Assembly (NCBI GenBank): GCA_014727915.1
Contig: WJMO01000006.1
Span: 192,001 to 256,000 of the forward strand
Reading direction: 5' to 3'
Source of the DNA: Candidatus Altiarchaeales archaeon
GTDB lineage: Archaea > Altiarchaeota > Altiarchaeia > IMC4 > SCGC-AAA252-I15
DNA length: 64,000 bases
Notes under the pieces: model-generated
What the model was told of the DNA's origin: nothing
Databases searched by the model: none
The model's input: the letters and a program-made list of their open reading frames with translations, nothing else
Part shown: one piece after another, positions 9,906 through 41,348 of the stretch
How the letters are laid out: every line of letters begins with the position of its first letter
Position numbering within the stretch: the first letter of the stretch is position 1
Program-made: the position numbers and the translations under genes

Positions 9906-9979
9906 AGCCCCAGGAGGGATTTGAACCCTCGACATGCAGATTACAAGTCTGCCGCTCTACCAGTCTGAGCCACTGAGGC
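9906..9979 (-). tRNA. tRNA-Thr(TGT), no intron
   Basis: GCCTCAG/CTGGGGC acceptor, GCAGA-CTTGTAA-TCTGC anticodon arm, GGTTCAAATCC T arm. Confidence 0.97.
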
Positions 9980-10064
9980 GTGTGTTTTTTTATTGTTTTT
10001 CTCCTTAATGTGCGTGGCACCGTATGGTGGCACCCGCGGAGCGTGTGCACGGAGCTAGCCGTGT

Positions 10065-10093
10065 AGTCTGAGCCACTGAGGCGTGTGTTTTTT
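10065..10093 (-). repeat. 29-bp duplicate of the tRNA-Thr 5' end (nt 1-18 plus 11 upstream nt)
   Basis: agtctgagccactgaggcgtgtgtttttt is identical at 9962-9990 and 10065-10093. Confidence 0.95.
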
Positions 10094-12657: not shown

Positions 12658-15624
12658 TTATACTACGACTTCTTTGGTTATCCAGACTCTTAGGCTGTTG
12701 CTGTCTATGTCTATGACGCCGAATTTGACCTCCCAGTATTCGGCGTTCTCCCAGAAGCTGACTTTGAACCTCTGGCTCTTGTCGTAGGGGTCCCATATGC
12801 GCACCCATGCGCCGTTGTAGCACTGGCGGTCCCAGACTATGCGGTCGAGTTTCAGCTTGAAAGACTGGTATTCTATTACATCCGTTGCGGTGAGGTTGAG
12901 TATGTCGTATTGTGGGGGCTTGGATGCGCAGGTCTTGCAGGGTCCGCCGCAGTCTATGCCGAGTTCTCCCTGGTTCTGGATGCAGTCGTAGCAGTTGCCC
13001 TGCCCTGGCAGGCCTCCCATGCAGTCGTCCTGTCCTTCGATGCACACCTCCCACTGGTCGCATACCTCGATAACCTCCACGGTATCCTTTACAGTGCAGT
13101 TGGCGGTGTACTCCCCCGGGTTCTCGCATATGTTCCGGGTGCAGTTCAGGGAGGGGTTGTTGGCGTGGTTGCAGTATGGTGCGCCGCACACGTCCACGCC
13201 GCAGTCCTCGTTCACCAGGCACATTGTGTCGTTTTCGTCGCATGGGGGGCAGGGTCCGCCGCAGTCCATCCACACCTCCCCCCTCTCATAGTCCCTAACG
13301 TCGTTTCGGCAGTGGTCTGGGTAGCATTCTCCAGCGTAGCAGTATTCGCTGTCCTCGCATGTTTTCACGAGGCGTGGGTTTACGGCCACTGACTTGCAGT
13401 ATGAGTCGGGAGTGCCGGGGTGTATGCAGGTGAACTTGACGTCTGGTGTTTTGACGAACCGGTCGTCGCAGAATGGCCGGTATGGTATGGGCTCCTCGCA
13501 CATGCTGGTGTTGTAGCATCTGACCTCCAATGTGGTGGTCGTGGTCGGGTTGGTGGGCAATGTCAGGGGCGGGAGGGTCGACTGGGTTGTCACTGTGGGT
13601 TTCAGCGTGGTTGTGGTCGGGCACATGCTCCTCTCCATGACCCATTTGCCGTCGTAGCACTGGTATAGGACTGCGGGCTTTGTGAATGACGCGAGTGCAG
13701 AGCTGACGTGGCCTTCCACGTAGGGGTACGCGAATAGTATGACCACCCCCCCGACCGCGATGAGTATGATGAAAACTACGCCTGCCATTACGAGCTTCAT
13801 AACAGGGGATTTTCCCCCGGGTTCTGTTTCTTCCGCAGGGGAGGGGAAGTCTTCCTTGTCTTTCTCGGTCTCCTCCAACGGTTCTAGGGTTGGCTTGGTT
13901 TTCTTCTTTTTCCCGAAGAACTGCTCCCTCAGGCCGCCCTCCTTCTTCGGTTTTGGCTGGGTGGGTGATTGCTCGCCCCCTGCAGGCGACCAGGTTATCT
14001 CCGATCCGCCAGCGGGTTCCCCCCCGGGAGGGCTTGTTCGGCCACCGGGCTTGGAGGGGGTTCCATCCGCTGTCCTGGGAGGGGATGGCTCTTCTTTGGA
14101 TGTTCCGGCATCAGCAGCATCCGACTCCCCTGTGGGGGGTGCCTTTGCCTGGGTGGTGGGAGCATGAGCTGGGGGGATGGGAGTCGGTGGAGTGGGAGGA
14201 ACTGCAGATTTTGCAGCCGGTGAAGGAGCCGGCGGTCTCTCCGGTGATTGGGCAACTGGGGGCTTACCAGCAGGCGAGGATTCAATAGGCTGCTTTTCAG
14301 GGGGGTATGGTGTGGCTGGCTTGAAGGTGGGGGGCTTTTGGATGTTGTCTGGCTTCACGCCTCGCATGTGAGGCGCTGTCATGTCTGTGGGGGAGGTTGA
14401 TGACGGGCCTGCAGTAGTAGGGGTGGATGGGGTTTTTGTGGGCGTTGTGGCGGGCCTTGGAGGTGTAGCAGGCTGCTGTTCCTGAACGGGTACAGGAGTC
14501 CTAGCGGCAGGCGAAGGCGGTGGTTGCCTTTCAGAGGAGGGAGGAGTAACCGGTTGGGGTGTTTTCTGAACCTGGGGTTGCGGTGGTGTAACAGGTTTTT
14601 GAGTTTGAGCCTGGGTTGATGGCGGCACATCGGTTTTTTGGAGTGTAGGCTGGGGACGAGCAGATTCAGAGGGCTTTTGAACTGGAGGAGTTGGAGGCCT
14701 GGCAGGAGGTGACTGTGGCTTTTCAGGGGTGGAATCCGAAGTTCCGGGGGTTTTAGGTGTTTGAGGGGGTGTACTTTCTGGTGTTCTGAATCCGGGGGGT
14801 TGATATGTTTCGGGAACGGGGTTGGGCTTTGTTTTTTCAGCTGTCCCTGCCGGAGGCTGGGCGGTAGTTGAGGGTTTATCAGGGGCTGCTGGCGCAGTCT
14901 GCTTAGCAGCCGGTGAAGTGGGTGCGGGCGGCTTCTGAGCCTCTGGCGTTTGAGTAGCAGGCTGCCTGGCCGGCGTCTGCGGTGCCTTGGCTGTTGTTTT
15001 AGGCTCTTCACGGCGGGGAAACCCCGGCCTTGAAGGCTTAGATAGGGGCGTCTCAGCTTGTTTCTGAACCGGGGAGACAGGTTCTAACCCGGCAGTCTTC
15101 TGAGCCGGCGAGGCTGGAGGCCTGGCAGGGGGCGTAGTAGACCTGGCAGATGTGGGTTGATCTGGCTCTTCTTGAGTAGACGAGGGCGGAACCGGCTTCT
15201 CAGGCACTGTAGGAGTCTGAGGCTTAGCGGCTGGTGAGGTAGTAGCTGTTACTGGAGGCTTCTGAGCCTGAGGTTGTGTGGGCGCTGCCGGTTTTTGAGT
15301 TTGAGTTCCGGGCGGGGTGGGAGTAGGTGGTTGGACCGGCTTCTGAGCTGGGGGAGTAGCAGGAGCCGAAGGCACAGTCGGCTTCTGAACTGGAGGAGCA
15401 GAGGGACTAGCGGGTGCAGAGGGCGAAGGTGGTTTCTGGGCTTGCGGAGCGGGGGTAGAGGGTGTTTTTTCCGGGGTTGTGGGTGTTGGGTGATCGGTCT
15501 TCTCCGCCTCGGCATCCTGTTGGATCTTATGGCGCTCCCGTTCTTTTCTCAGTTCCTCCTTAAGCTTGTCGAGTTCGGCCTGGTCTATGTCTTCAGAGCC
15601 ATCGTCATCGGGCATGGTAAACAA
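12658..15624 (-). CDS. Single-pass membrane protein with a ~600-aa Pro/Thr/Gln-rich N-terminus and a Cys-rich C-terminal domain
   Basis: 988 aa, TM LVMAGVVFIILIAVGGVVILFAY, two GE-x-x-x-DCGGPC motifs. Confidence 0.8.
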   Translation of the reverse strand: MFTMPDDDGSEDIDQAELDKLKEELRKERERHKIQQDAEAEKTDHPTPTTPEKTPSTPAPQAQKPPSPSAPASPSAPPVQKPTVPSAPATPPAQKPVQPPTPTPPGTQTQKPAAPTQPQAQKPPVTATTSPAAKPQTPTVPEKPVPPSSTQEEPDQPTSARSTTPPARPPASPAQKTAGLEPVSPVQKQAETPLSKPSRPGFPRREEPKTTAKAPQTPARQPATQTPEAQKPPAPTSPAAKQTAPAAPDKPSTTAQPPAGTAEKTKPNPVPETYQPPGFRTPESTPPQTPKTPGTSDSTPEKPQSPPARPPTPPVQKPSESARPQPTLQKTDVPPSTQAQTQKPVTPPQPQVQKTPQPVTPPSSERQPPPSPAARTPVPVQEQQPATPPRPATTPTKTPSTPTTAGPSSTSPTDMTAPHMRGVKPDNIQKPPTFKPATPYPPEKQPIESSPAGKPPVAQSPERPPAPSPAAKSAVPPTPPTPIPPAHAPTTQAKAPPTGESDAADAGTSKEEPSPPRTADGTPSKPGGRTSPPGGEPAGGSEITWSPAGGEQSPTQPKPKKEGGLREQFFGKKKKTKPTLEPLEETEKDKEDFPSPAEETEPGGKSPVMKLVMAGVVFIILIAVGGVVILFAYPYVEGHVSSALASFTKPAVLYQCYDGKWVMERSMCPTTTTLKPTVTTQSTLPPLTLPTNPTTTTTLEVRCYNTSMCEEPIPYRPFCDDRFVKTPDVKFTCIHPGTPDSYCKSVAVNPRLVKTCEDSEYCYAGECYPDHCRNDVRDYERGEVWMDCGGPCPPCDENDTMCLVNEDCGVDVCGAPYCNHANNPSLNCTRNICENPGEYTANCTVKDTVEVIEVCDQWEVCIEGQDDCMGGLPGQGNCYDCIQNQGELGIDCGGPCKTCASKPPQYDILNLTATDVIEYQSFKLKLDRIVWDRQCYNGAWVRIWDPYDKSQRFKVSFWENAEYWEVKFGVIDIDSNSLRVWITKEVVV

Positions 15625-17247: not shown

Positions 17248-17349
17248 TGGACTCGTCGGGATTTGAACCCGAGGCCTCCGCCACACTGGAAAACCCTGCT
17301 TTTTGGTTTTTTGCCAAGGCGACGATCTACCGGACTGATCTACGAGCCC
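17248..17349 (-). tRNA. tRNA-Ala(GGC) with a 28-nt intron at 37/38
   Basis: GGGCTCG/CGAGTCC-A acceptor with G3:U70; canonical BHB with TTGG/CCAG central helix, 3-nt bulges and AAAACC/GGTTTT intron helix. Confidence 0.95.
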
Positions 17350-17435
17350 ATGTCTGGAATATGTGATTATAAGTATATTATTTCTTTGGGGGGTGAGGCA
17401 CCTTTTCTTTCACCAAAAGAAGGGGGGGTCAAGGG

Positions 17436-17456
17436 CTGATCTACGAGCCCATGTCT
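17436..17456 (-). repeat. 21-bp duplicate of the tRNA-Ala 5' end (nt 1-15 plus 6 upstream nt)
   Basis: ctgatctacgagcccatgtct is identical at 17335-17355 and 17436-17456. Confidence 0.95.
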
Positions 17457-17555
17457 ACAAATTACTGCACCAACGGTTAAATAACAGCAAACACAAAATA
17501 TTTGGGTTATTTTACGTATAATTTAAAGATTTTTTTGTATTATTTAAAAAGTGGT

Positions 17556-17639
17556 CGCAGAGGTCGGGATTTGAACCCGAGCTCCCGAAGGAACAGGATT
17601 AGCAGTCCTGCGCGTTAAACCATGCTCCGCCACCTCTGC
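17556..17639 (-). tRNA. tRNA-Ser(GCT), no intron
   Basis: GCAGAGG/CCTCTGC-G acceptor, CAGGA-CTGCTAA-TCCTG anticodon arm, long variable arm. Confidence 0.97.
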
Positions 17640-34983: not shown

Positions 34984-35131
34984 GATACGAGTAAATCAGG
35001 CAGAAGTAAGGTGATTTTGAAGAGACTGGGGATGATGGGCCTGAGGAGACGAGTATCATGGAATGATACGAGTACATCAGGCAGAAGTTGGATGATGCTG
35101 GTATAGAATGTAGGTGATGGGCCTGAGGAGA
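34984..35131. repeat. Diverged tandem duplication (period 81-82 bp) that includes the tRNA-Ile2 3' end
   Basis: 24-mer at 34984-35007 and 35065-35088 (23/24 identical); tgatgggcctgaggaga identical at 35033-35049 and 35115-35131. Confidence 0.9.
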
Positions 35132-35278
35132 TTCGAACTCCCGACCACTCGATCTCCCAAACCCCTCCTCTTTCCATCCCTTTATTTTTCTTTTGGGGAT
35201 GAAACACCTTTTCTTTTTTTCTAAAAAGAAAAGGGGTTCTATGAGTCGAGCGCTCTAACCGGACTGAGCTACAGGCCC
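35118..35278 (-). tRNA. tRNA with CAT anticodon, most likely tRNA-Ile2, with an 86-nt intron (35154-35239)
   Basis: GGGCCTG/CAGGCCC-A acceptor typical of archaeal Ile tRNAs; BHB with CTCA/TGGG central helix and AACCCC/GGGGTT intron helix. Confidence 0.92.
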
Positions 35279-35381
35279 GTGTATGTGTGTTTTTTTCCTA
35301 GCCTTTGGGCTAGTGCATTTTTTGTTCGGGGGGGGCCTTAGCGGAGCGGAGGTCGCACATTTGTCGTCGGCAAACTCCGAC

Positions 35382-35395
35382 AGCTACAGGCCCGT
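35382..35395 (-). repeat. 14-bp duplicate of the tRNA-Ile2 5' end (nt 1-12 plus 2 upstream nt)
   Basis: agctacaggcccgt is identical at 35267-35280 and 35382-35395. Confidence 0.88.
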
Positions 35396-41204: not shown

Positions 41205-41348
41205 CGCCCCCGCAAGGACTTGAACCTTGGACCACTCGATAGCTGCAACCTGTTACCGGAATGCTGTTTTCCGTCAACGCTTTTGCCCCGCGTAGCGGGG
41301 TAAAAGGGTTGTAACAGTCGAGCGCTCTACCAACTGAGCTACAGAGGC
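41205..41348 (-). tRNA. tRNA-Asn(GTT) with a 71-nt intron (41241-41311)
   Basis: GCCTCTG/CGGGGGC-G acceptor, CTCGA/TCGAG stem; BHB with CTGT/GCAG central helix and AACC/GGTT intron helix. Confidence 0.95.

Follow-up and report, generated by a model that had tools for sequence, protein, structure and literature searches.

A decayed hairpin element shared with tRNA introns probably interrupts the 5' end of an archaeal tRNA-Ala gene

How does a sequence that heads tRNA introns elsewhere in a genome come to lie between a tRNA gene and a second copy of that gene's own 5' end? The question is raised by the tRNA-Ala(GGC) locus of an uncultured archaeon, Candidatus Altiarchaeales (contig WJMO01000006.1, positions 192,001 to 256,000; this whole stretch of 64,000 nt is hereafter the window, and bare coordinates refer to it), where 80 nt separate two exact copies of the start of the gene. 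We suggest that the insert is probably a decayed copy of a mobile hairpin element, which we term motif A, and that it entered with duplication of its target. The source genome (G000; 1.81 Mb in 13 contigs, 54% G+C, 90.6% complete) has its nearest records among metagenome-assembled genomes labelled Candidatus Altiarchaeota, to whose proteins its Cbf5 is 62-75% identical. It was compared with a genome of the same genus (G001) and with further relatives (other G numbers), whose assemblies are fragmentary.

The tRNA-Ala(GGC) locus and the motif A family

Read along the minus strand, the locus consists of tRNA-Ser(GCT), an A/T-rich spacer, the 21-nt sequence AGACATGGGCTCGTAGATCAG, 80 nt, AGACATGGGCTCGTAGATCAG again, and the rest of tRNA-Ala. 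Its features are the following.

17556..17639, minus strand: tRNA-Ser(GCT), the upstream neighbour of tRNA-Ala; the Ser-Ala pair is kept in relatives
17477..17484, minus strand: probable ancestral TATA box TTATTTAA, about 34 nt upstream of the orphan 5' end; putative function
17436..17456, minus strand: upstream copy of the 21-nt repeat, the orphan, ancestral 5' end (leader -6 to -1 plus tRNA-Ala positions 1-15)
17356..17435, minus strand: the whole inserted segment, 80 nt, between the two direct-repeat copies
17431-17435, minus strand: 5-nt filler CCCTT, the part of the 80-nt segment between the orphan fragment and motif A
17378..17430, minus strand: motif A copy (GACCCCCCC, a decayed hairpin, then CACCCCCCAAAGAAATAA)
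17356-17377, minus strand: 22-nt A/T-rich spacer with TAATATA and TTATAA boxes, possibly promoter-like as judged by eye
17335..17355, minus strand: downstream copy of the 21-nt repeat, the regenerated 5' end, continuous with the rest of tRNA-Ala
17248..17349, minus strand: complete tRNA-Ala(GGC) gene, 53.7 bits with the Rfam tRNA model
17284-17311, minus strand: the gene's own intron, 28 nt at 37/38, with bulge-helix-bulge (BHB) helices of 5, 4 and 5 bp; unrelated to motif A

The direct repeat is exact in 21 of 21 positions and spans tRNA-Ala positions -6 to +15 (17436-17456 and 17335-17355); its copies start 101 nt apart, with 80 nt in between, and the break falls at D-loop position 15/16. 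Beyond position -6 the leaders of the two copies diverge. An initial annotation of the window had read this place as a D-arm break with a regenerated tRNA 5' end, and the exact repeat bears that reading out.

The same annotation had likened the insert to the intron of a second tRNA gene, labelled Ile2 and here called tRNA(CAU), whose relevant parts are as follows.

35118..35278, minus strand: tRNA(CAU), 55.5 bits with the Rfam tRNA model
35154-35239, minus strand: its intron, 86 nt (CTCATA/GAACCCC...GGGAG/ATCGAG, slashes marking the exon-intron borders), with BHB helices of 7, 4 and 7 bp
35183..35239, minus strand: motif A copy that begins at the first intron base, 77.7 bits with our covariance model R1

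The strings quoted for the two genes lie on the minus strand where they were placed, and they share the exact 12-mer AAAGAAAAGGTG (17399-17410 and 35205-35216), of which one more copy in the genome, at C13:57431, also lies between two tRNA genes. That the similarity starts at the first intron base is likewise correct, with the BHB scan setting the intron at 35154-35239 and motif A at base 1. Local alignment of the Ala insert with the 5' part of the tRNA(CAU) intron gives a score of 25, which dinucleotide shuffles do not reach, either when the Ala sequence is shuffled (9.4 +/- 1.8; 0/5000) or when both are (9.5 +/- 1.9; 0/5000); the resemblance therefore survives the composition-preserving comparison that the annotation had proposed. 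A profile built from the five intron copies only, with leave-one-out, returned the Ala insert as its best non-seed match in the genome (E = 5.2e-6), and R1 matches 17377-17434 at 63.9 bits.

Motif A is about 55 nt long and consists of GARCCCC, a 14-bp hairpin and then CAYCCCCAAAAGAAA; more fully, GARCCCC is followed by the hairpin arms TTTTCTTT / AAAGAAAA, with flanking G-C pairs, and by GTGYTTCAYCCCCAAAAGAAA. Genes for tRNA were called with the Rfam tRNA model and with ARAGORN with introns allowed; plain ARAGORN overlooks intron-bearing tRNAs, and its isotype names are unreliable for them, tRNA(CAU) for instance being named 'Ser-cga'. There are 35 ARAGORN calls in the genome and 27 genes confirmed by the Rfam model; within the window the Rfam count is five, and three of these genes have long introns. 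The further copies that the annotation wished to see searched for do exist: at E < 0.1 the covariance model recovers motif A at 10 distinct loci of this genome, each of them within a tRNA gene or next to one. Six are introns at 37/38 (tRNA(CAU), Arg-UCU, Glu-UUC, Met-CAU, Arg-CCU and, more weakly, Thr-GGU), two abut tRNA 3' ends (tRNA-Gly(UCC) and tRNA-Lys), and two lie upstream of tRNAs (Ala and Gly-UCC).

Beyond this genome, 46 of the order's 49 genomes have motif A at E <= 1e-3, the most matches in any one being 52, and so do 46 of the class's 61 genomes at E <= 1e-6. R1 has 478 matches at E <= 1e-3 in the 49 genomes, from which 47 copies were looked at (38 loci, namely the best match per genome plus 8 picked clusters): 24 are enclosed by an ARAGORN tRNA call and 5 directly adjoin one, for 6 the nearest call is no more than 150 nt away, and the remaining 12 have none in the neighbourhood. 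The tRNA bias by which the annotation's reading could be judged is thus complete among the 10 loci of this genome and not exclusive among the relatives. We conclude that motif A is conserved across an archaeal class and lies almost wholly inside tRNA transcription units. A role as a transcription terminator, considered for the T4CT4 runs on both strands, was rejected as the main one, most copies being inside introns of essential tRNAs.

The hairpin of motif A is kept by compensatory changes. Across 58 aligned copies 98.2% of stem cells are paired and 10 of the 14 pairs have changed on both sides; cells with both-side changes number 96, against 28.9 in shuffles (0/500 reach 96) and at most 4 in slid controls. 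The stem closes at its base with a G-U pair that 49 of 56 distinct copies retain, a hint that the hairpin may matter as an RNA of this strand.

In the introns, motif A begins at base 1-4 in all six cases, with BHB helices of up to 7, 4 and 7 bp, in agreement with the annotation's proposal that one repeated hairpin sequence is tolerated in BHB introns at 37/38. In tRNA(CAU) GAACCCC pairs with GGGGTT near the intron 3' end to form the inner BHB helix, and the same pairing of GARCCCC with GGGGTTY is seen in tRNA(CAU) and Arg-UCU, with partners identified by eye; at the very end of the intron, a few bases that vary from tRNA to tRNA pair with the anticodon loop. Similar introns are shared by different isoacceptors of this one genome, with five strong copies plus tRNA-Thr(GGU), and between tRNA(CAU) and tRNA-Arg(UCU) the likeness extends over the whole intron and not the hairpin alone (80% identity over 80 nt, E = 6.5e-10). 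Intron presence varies between close relatives, and even within the genus: as a comparison across related genomes, also suggested by the annotation, brought out, the tRNA(CAU) intron is absent from the same-genus G001 and from G002 and G004, and a motif-A-like intron occurs in G011. A special link between the Ala insert and tRNA(CAU) is not borne out, since the identity of the Ala copy to the tRNA(CAU) copy, 72%, is no higher than its identity to the 11 nearest of the 57 others aligned (72-79%).

History and processing of the Ala insert

What did the locus look like before? In G001, tRNA-Ser is followed by an A/T-rich spacer with the box TTATTTAACC, 40 nt upstream of an uninterrupted tRNA-Ala; in the window the same box precedes the orphan copy. 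The 21-nt repeat is a single copy at this empty site, motif A is not at the Ser-Ala locus of G001, and five further relatives are also without an upstream copy, so that none of the six relatives with tRNA-Ala(GGC) carries an upstream 5'-end copy (match of >= 8 nt to positions -6..+25; 76 nt of upstream sequence were available in G001). The simplest history is that the Ala insertion is derived, through one gain in the line leading to the source genome. Four DNA sequencing runs cover the tRNA exons only, at 85-100% likeness, which points to relatives' genes; the insert is uncovered in them, and they contain no joints.

Whether the insert could be spliced is a separate matter. Its removal together with one repeat restores tRNA-Ala in 20 registers, trivially so because of the 21-nt repeat. 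A BHB, with its 4-bp central helix, two 3-nt bulges and flanking helices, is not found at the insert boundaries: the best of the 20 registers gives helices (2,4,2) and register 15/16 gives (0,4,0), as compared with (5,4,5) at the real tRNA-Ala intron, and the same 231 nt contain four further places, none of them an intron, with at least (2,4,2). The insert is also without the GGGGTTY partner that closes the intron helix. Nor does it have the 'same hairpin' as tRNA(CAU), as had been claimed: the fold energy is -15.1 kcal/mol for the tRNA(CAU) copy (z = -4.4, matched by 0/200 shuffles) and -6.9 kcal/mol for the Ala copy (z = 0.1, matched by 100/200), in which two T-to-C differences break the family stem. 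Because there is no usable BHB and the hairpin has decayed, we conclude that the Ala insert is most probably an unspliced, dead DNA insertion in the leader, neither an intron nor an intron in the making; it sits between the orphan fragment and the complete gene. Of the annotation's view that the locus may be a snapshot of tRNA intron gain or mobility, the mobility of the sequence holds, but intron gain is not shown, for these same reasons.

The events may be pictured as follows. The usual home of motif A is a canonical intron, in which GARCCCC and GGGGTTY build the inner BHB helix and the 14-bp hairpin is stacked on top. An 80-nt segment headed by motif A would have entered tRNA-Ala(GGC) at D-loop position 15/16, and the insertion event itself would have duplicated 21 bp of target, -6 to +15, the repeat being a target duplication and not an attachment (att) site carried in by the element. 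The original promoter would now drive an orphan 15-nt 5' fragment, with the complete gene following the insert. Mature tRNA-Ala would be released from the downstream copy by RNase P cleavage, after transcription that might read through from the old promoter or start at the A/T-rich TAATATA/TTATAA box of the insert.

Several points weigh against this reading. Conservation is confined to the left (hairpin) end of the inserts, their right ends being unlike one another, so that an element with two defined ends is not shown, and no donor copy for the Ala insert stands out among the 57 other aligned copies. Gain versus loss rests on parsimony, and recombination between the 21-nt repeats would restore a G001-like site exactly. 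The 47 copies from relatives are not a random sample, and the alignment of 58 copies (A2) was fitted to the model structure, which favours pairing. The genome, at 90.6% completeness, has no match to the reverse transcriptase family RVT_1 and none to the Y1 transposase (PF01797, 0 matches); the recombinases searched for and found are two tyrosine integrases only, beside tRNA-Glu and tRNA-Asp. Finally, we know of no familiar transposase family that repeat lengths of 11-73 nt, as found in this genome, would fit.

Similar inserts in this genome and its relatives

The tRNA-Ala locus does not stand alone. An exact copy, at least 11 nt long, of part of a tRNA's first 40 nt lies within 300 nt upstream in 9 of the 35 ARAGORN tRNAs, and within 300 nt downstream in none of the 35, where two reach 10 nt. 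When leaders are included, 12 tRNAs have repeats of 9-45 nt around inserts of 34-121 nt, two cases of 9 nt being weak. There are at least nine tRNA 5'-end insertions of this kind in the genome, Ala among them. The 5' break points of 11 events fall at tRNA positions 7, 12, 12, 12, 15, 15, 16, 18, 18, 20 and 20, with a weaker twelfth at 7, and in relatives they reach up to about 27 (by eye).

Several conserved hairpins recur as insert heads: motif A (Ala), motif B (ACGGCTCGCTCCGT...; Thr-UGU and Glu) and motif D (GTCGGAGTTWGCCGAC; tRNA(CAU), Arg-CCU and Gly-GCC). Each of the five genome copies of motif D has flanking repeats, 11-71 nt in length, whose end coincides exactly with the hairpin. For motif B, flanking repeats were found by script at two of the seven copies (29 and 48 nt) and by eye at a third (16 nt with one mismatch), the other four lying behind a tRNA 3' end or a copy of one. 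In viral contigs, two motif A patterns and one motif B pattern had no exact match. The inserts of this kind in the window, and those at non-tRNA sites of the genome, are listed here.

35281..35381, minus strand: motif D insert, 101 nt, upstream of tRNA(CAU), with hairpin GTCGGAGTTTGCCGAC; unrelated to motif A
35382-35395 and 35267-35280, minus strand: 14-nt direct repeats ACGGGCCTGTAGCT around the motif D insert
9991..10064, minus strand: motif B insert, 74 nt, upstream of tRNA-Thr(UGU) (9906-9979), with head ACGGCTAGCTCCGT...
within 9906-10093, minus strand: 29-nt direct repeats at tRNA-Thr(UGU), covering tRNA positions -11 to +18
G000:C3:440772-440932: probable C/D box small RNA (sRNA), its last 27 nt (3' end) duplicated
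G000:C3:498645-498848 (L149:246-449): 3' end of a protein gene, its last 73 nt duplicated; the gene now stops at a codon formed by the junction
G000:C12:225991-226160 (L148:192-361): gene junction (overlapping stop/start), 48 nt duplicated

At the last three places, hairpin-headed inserts of 58-79 nt lie between exact, local target duplications. The sRNA assignment combines an Rfam sR2 match of 32.4 bits, below the gathering score of 42 (E = 8.8e-5), with boxes recognized by eye. Among the relatives, 8 of the 47 motif A copies have repeats of 16-70 nt that end within 5 nt of the motif, and by eye these sites include tRNA 5' ends (G034, G020, G006), tRNA 3' ends (G042, G017) and non-tRNA places (G039, G008). 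The duplication is, we conclude, a property of the process and not of tRNA genes. As a side observation, the N-terminus of the gene after the 48-nt junction duplication looks by eye like a glutamine amidotransferase.

Among the inserts, that at tRNA-Thr(UGU) alone has repeats able to form a good BHB: because positions 4-8 of this tRNA complement positions 16-20, helices of 5, 4 and 3 bp can arise at 14/15. It might be spliceable, and by a rough estimate one such case among nine could be due to chance. The orphan fragments have decayed to different extents, with 1 mismatch in 16 nt at Glu and 2 in 11 nt at the tRNA-Thr of G001; such mismatches suggest that the fragments are remnants of differing age.

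The hairpin heads seem to be exchangeable between inserts. We also note that at tRNA(CAU) G001 (L154) has the same 12-nt orphan fragment and break position with a motif B head and a similar insert middle, and that G002 (L152) has a third kind of insert head there. Different elements do land at the same tRNA-Ser(GCT) junction in different genomes. Within two bases of the orthologous tRNA-Ser(GCT) 3' end lie motif B in G008 (L005) and motif A variants in G002 (L008) and G017 (L010), and a motif D hairpin truncates the motif A arm that follows tRNA-Ser(GCT) in G019 (L004). Upstream of tRNA-Arg(UCU) and tRNA-Ile(GAU), the orphan 5' copies contain extra segments that the working genes lack (48 nt at 20/21 in G000:C3:487974-488087 and 54 nt at 7/8 in G000:C3:30990-31110, respectively), which may be either nested inserts or relics of former non-canonical introns.

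Competing explanations and known systems

The main rival to target-duplicating insertion, for the 5' events as a whole, is integration at an att site: a larger element that carried the tRNA-Ala 5' end as its attachment site (attP) would have been integrated by a tyrosine recombinase and later have lost almost its whole interior, leaving 80 nt. The genome offers this idea some footing, for classical att-type integration at tRNA 3' ends is active in it. Several tRNAs have a copy of their last 15-16 nt 45-80 nt downstream, always beginning in the T loop, and four of these copies are preceded by GATAAGCGAG...CGAGCGG. Downstream of tRNA-Gln lie two tandem islands of defence type (G000:C13:50180-57384, L105), bounded by copies of its last 15-16 nt and each ending in the series 3'-end copy, 44 nt, GATAAGCGAG..GCGAGTGGG, 3'-end copy; their genes encode a DNA methylase, a Csa1/Cas4-like nuclease, a BrxC/D-like ATPase and a DUF4143 AAA ATPase, and no integrase was seen in either island. 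Two tyrosine-integrase (Phage_integrase) genes, G000:C3:114464-114943 and G000:C4:3382-3873, lie directly downstream of tRNA-Glu(UUC) and tRNA-Asp(GUC), with near-copies of the two tRNA 3' ends 9.6 kb and 7 kb further on, and a 44-nt piece after tRNA-Thr(UGU) resembles, by eye, the sequence after tRNA-Glu and tRNA-Asp near the integrase genes. It may be added that the right ends of the Glu and Asp integrase elements share ...CTGTTGGTGGTTTCG before the 3'-end copy.

At tRNA-Ala itself, the direct repeats are part of the tRNA gene (21 nt, -6 to +15), as an att event would have it, but the 80 nt between them contain neither an integrase nor other element genes, the integrases being elsewhere, and no core position is fixed across events. 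We consider such an origin unlikely and rank it below target-duplicating insertion because the 5' break varies, from position 7 to 20 here and to about 27 in relatives, and 3'-end copies always begin in the T loop; because the same insert families lie between unrelated local duplications in sRNA and protein genes, so that each element would need its own attP; because the inserts are uniformly small (34-121 nt in 12 events), and random deletion remnants would vary more; and because the Ala repeat includes lineage-specific leader bases.

Rather less probable is that unequal crossing-over or slippage duplicated a stretch that already held motif A, for example a copy in the Ser-Ala spacer, along with the start of the gene. 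The Ser-Ala spacer of G002 is filled, over all its 55 nt, by a motif-A-like element, and tandem units of 5' fragment plus insert do occur at tRNA-Ser(GGA) here and also in G006 and G039. After such an event, however, the orphan should be preceded by another motif A and by an identical leader; in fact the repeat extends over no more than 21 nt, the leaders differ past -6, and the same-genus G001 is without motif A at the locus.

An RNA-mediated route, in which an excised motif-A intron was joined as RNA to a 5' fragment of tRNA-Ala and the product copied to DNA and recombined into the locus, strikes us as very improbable. It would account for where motif A starts, both in introns (base 1-4) and in 8 repeat-flanked copies of relatives, which begin at a distance of 0-5 nt from the repeat as at Ala; both RNAs would carry ends that tRNA ligase accepts, and the stem-base G-U pair kept in most copies would also suit it. 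Against this, the genome lacks a match to RVT_1, the duplication extends into the leader by 6 bases, and at other loci into the promoter region by as much as about 50 nt, none of which a processed RNA would contain, and five filler bases separate the fragment from the motif. The CCCTT filler was also considered as a relic of the Ala anticodon arm (6/9 bases by eye), the orphan then being a decayed 5' half with a motif-A intron; this was rejected, the match being too short and no regular pattern emerging among the relatives.

Slightly lower still do we place the idea of a functional non-canonical intron, with the insert removed at 15/16 (or 3/4) by the splicing endonuclease from a precursor that begins with the upstream fragment. 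The insert and one repeat could be removed in any of the 20 registers, a 4-bp central helix arises from the palindromes CATG and GATC at registers 3/4 and 15/16, and the analogous repeats at tRNA-Thr(UGU) do form longer helices. At Ala, though, the flanking helices are 2+2 or 0+0 bp, no better than at the four other places named above, and splicing is unneeded, a complete 5' end following the insert. The genome has one splicing-endonuclease catalytic-domain match, within a 190-aa open frame (enzyme at C11:6656-6916), which suggests a single-subunit enzyme; single-subunit splicing endonucleases generally require strict motifs. Chance likeness of two A/T- and C-rich stretches, both of them low-complexity purine/pyrimidine tracts, can be dismissed in view of the shuffles, the genome-wide recovery of the insert by profile and covariance model, and dozens of near-identical copies in other genomes.

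How does target-duplicating insertion by motif A compare with systems already described? A shared, 'transposed' tRNA intron family was reportedly treated by Fujishima and colleagues in 2010 (Mol Biol Evol). REP (repetitive extragenic palindromic) elements and MITEs (miniature inverted-repeat transposable elements) are short, multi-copy, hairpin-forming and non-coding, and as far as this general picture goes motif A inserts resemble them. Unlike elements of the MITE or insertion-sequence type, the repeat-flanked copies are without terminal inverted repeats and their duplications measure 11-73 nt instead of being short and fixed; unlike REP elements, they lie mostly inside transcribed tRNA units, and no Y1 (RAYT-type) transposase was found in the genome.

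Closer on the intron side is the 'intron transposition' of the Thermoproteales, for which the relevant sections of two papers report near-identical introns in different isoacceptors of one genome (PMC4033280, PMC4090602); the second, a 2014 review, states in its section on the subject that the mechanism of tRNA intron spread is unknown and presumes it to act on DNA (PMC4090602). Near-identical introns across isoacceptors, here for example tRNA(CAU) and Arg(UCU), and presence or absence between close relatives are common to both. The differences, set against those sections, are that the present lineage belongs to the Altiarchaeota, that all motif A introns seen here are at canonical 37/38, and that the same sequence also occurs after tRNA 3' ends, with orphan 5' fragments and with non-tRNA target duplications.

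On the side of insertion, the account of tRNA-Thr(GGU) in Caldiarchaeum subterraneum describes a 5' fragment upstream of a complete gene and reads it as disruption by a mobile element (Sugahara et al., 2012, PMC3293823). The arrangement of orphan 5' fragment, inserted DNA and complete gene of the same tRNA is alike, and the presence there of a recombinase lends the att explanation a precedent; but in that account the insert is 1.8 kb long and bears the recombinase, whereas the Ala insert has 80 nt, no gene and no added intron (PMC3293823). Tyrosine integrases of archaeal viruses and plasmids, as the review summarizes them, integrate site-specifically into tRNA genes (PMC4090602). In this, too, the repeats are part of the tRNA gene and the gene is regenerated, and elements of that sort are present here at tRNA-Gln, tRNA-Glu and tRNA-Asp; the Ala insert differs from the integration so summarized in having no integrase, a variable break and families that also occur at non-tRNA targets.

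Bacterial restriction-modification insertions, in the part of the study that concerns their junctions, have variable direct repeats of tens of bp that are single in a relative's empty site (Furuta et al., 2010, PMC2853133), with no transposase or integrase inside and a mechanism given as unknown (PMC2853133). Here as well the repeats are long and variable, measuring 11-73 nt in the source genome and reaching 70 nt in relatives, and the inserts between them have 34-121 nt; as in that description, the repeat is single in the empty site (G001), its length varies and no mobility gene lies inside. Compared with the kilobase gene cargo described for bacteria, the cargo here is archaeal, non-coding and 34-121 nt long with a conserved hairpin head, and there is a strong preference for small-RNA genes.

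In the literature covered, supplementary files aside, we found no description of tRNA introns or of such inserts in this lineage, nor one of gene-sparing, hairpin-headed insertion with 11-73-nt duplications for archaea; the wider insertion habit of this lineage is apparently undescribed. A more sweeping proposal may be put forward, as speculation that we hold to be possible and less than likely: motifs A, B and D would be undescribed, tiny archaeal mobile DNA that inserts at the termini of tRNA, sRNA and protein genes, leaves the gene intact through a long target duplication of varying length, and at 37/38 becomes a spliceable intron where GARCCCC closes the BHB, with the tRNA-Thr(UGU) insert as an intermediate. 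If it were true, motif A would be the long-sought vehicle of archaeal tRNA intron gain and 'transposition'. Apart from this proposal, the lineage presents one sequence in three states: it forms the core of strict canonical introns, for no fewer than six isoacceptors, it abuts tRNA ends as a leader or trailer, and it occurs as a fresh insertion with a clean target duplication and an empty site in a sister genome. Together with intron presence and absence within a genus, these make the DNA-versus-RNA question testable. Hairpin-headed inserts with 11-73-nt duplications at gene ends, for their part, represent a form of gene-sparing insertion.

Two minor observations concern the rest of the window. 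A 988-aa open reading frame at 12658-15624 (minus strand) has no Pfam family at E <= 0.001. A second intron family, unrelated to motif A, is shared by tRNA-Asn(GUU) (41205-41348, minus strand) and tRNA-Gly(UCC) (G000:C13:57442-57590, minus strand), with the layout ACCCTTTTACC, hairpin, CAAAAGCG ... CAGGTT; the two introns align with a score of 29, against 7.4 +/- 1.4 in shuffles (0/2000 reach it).

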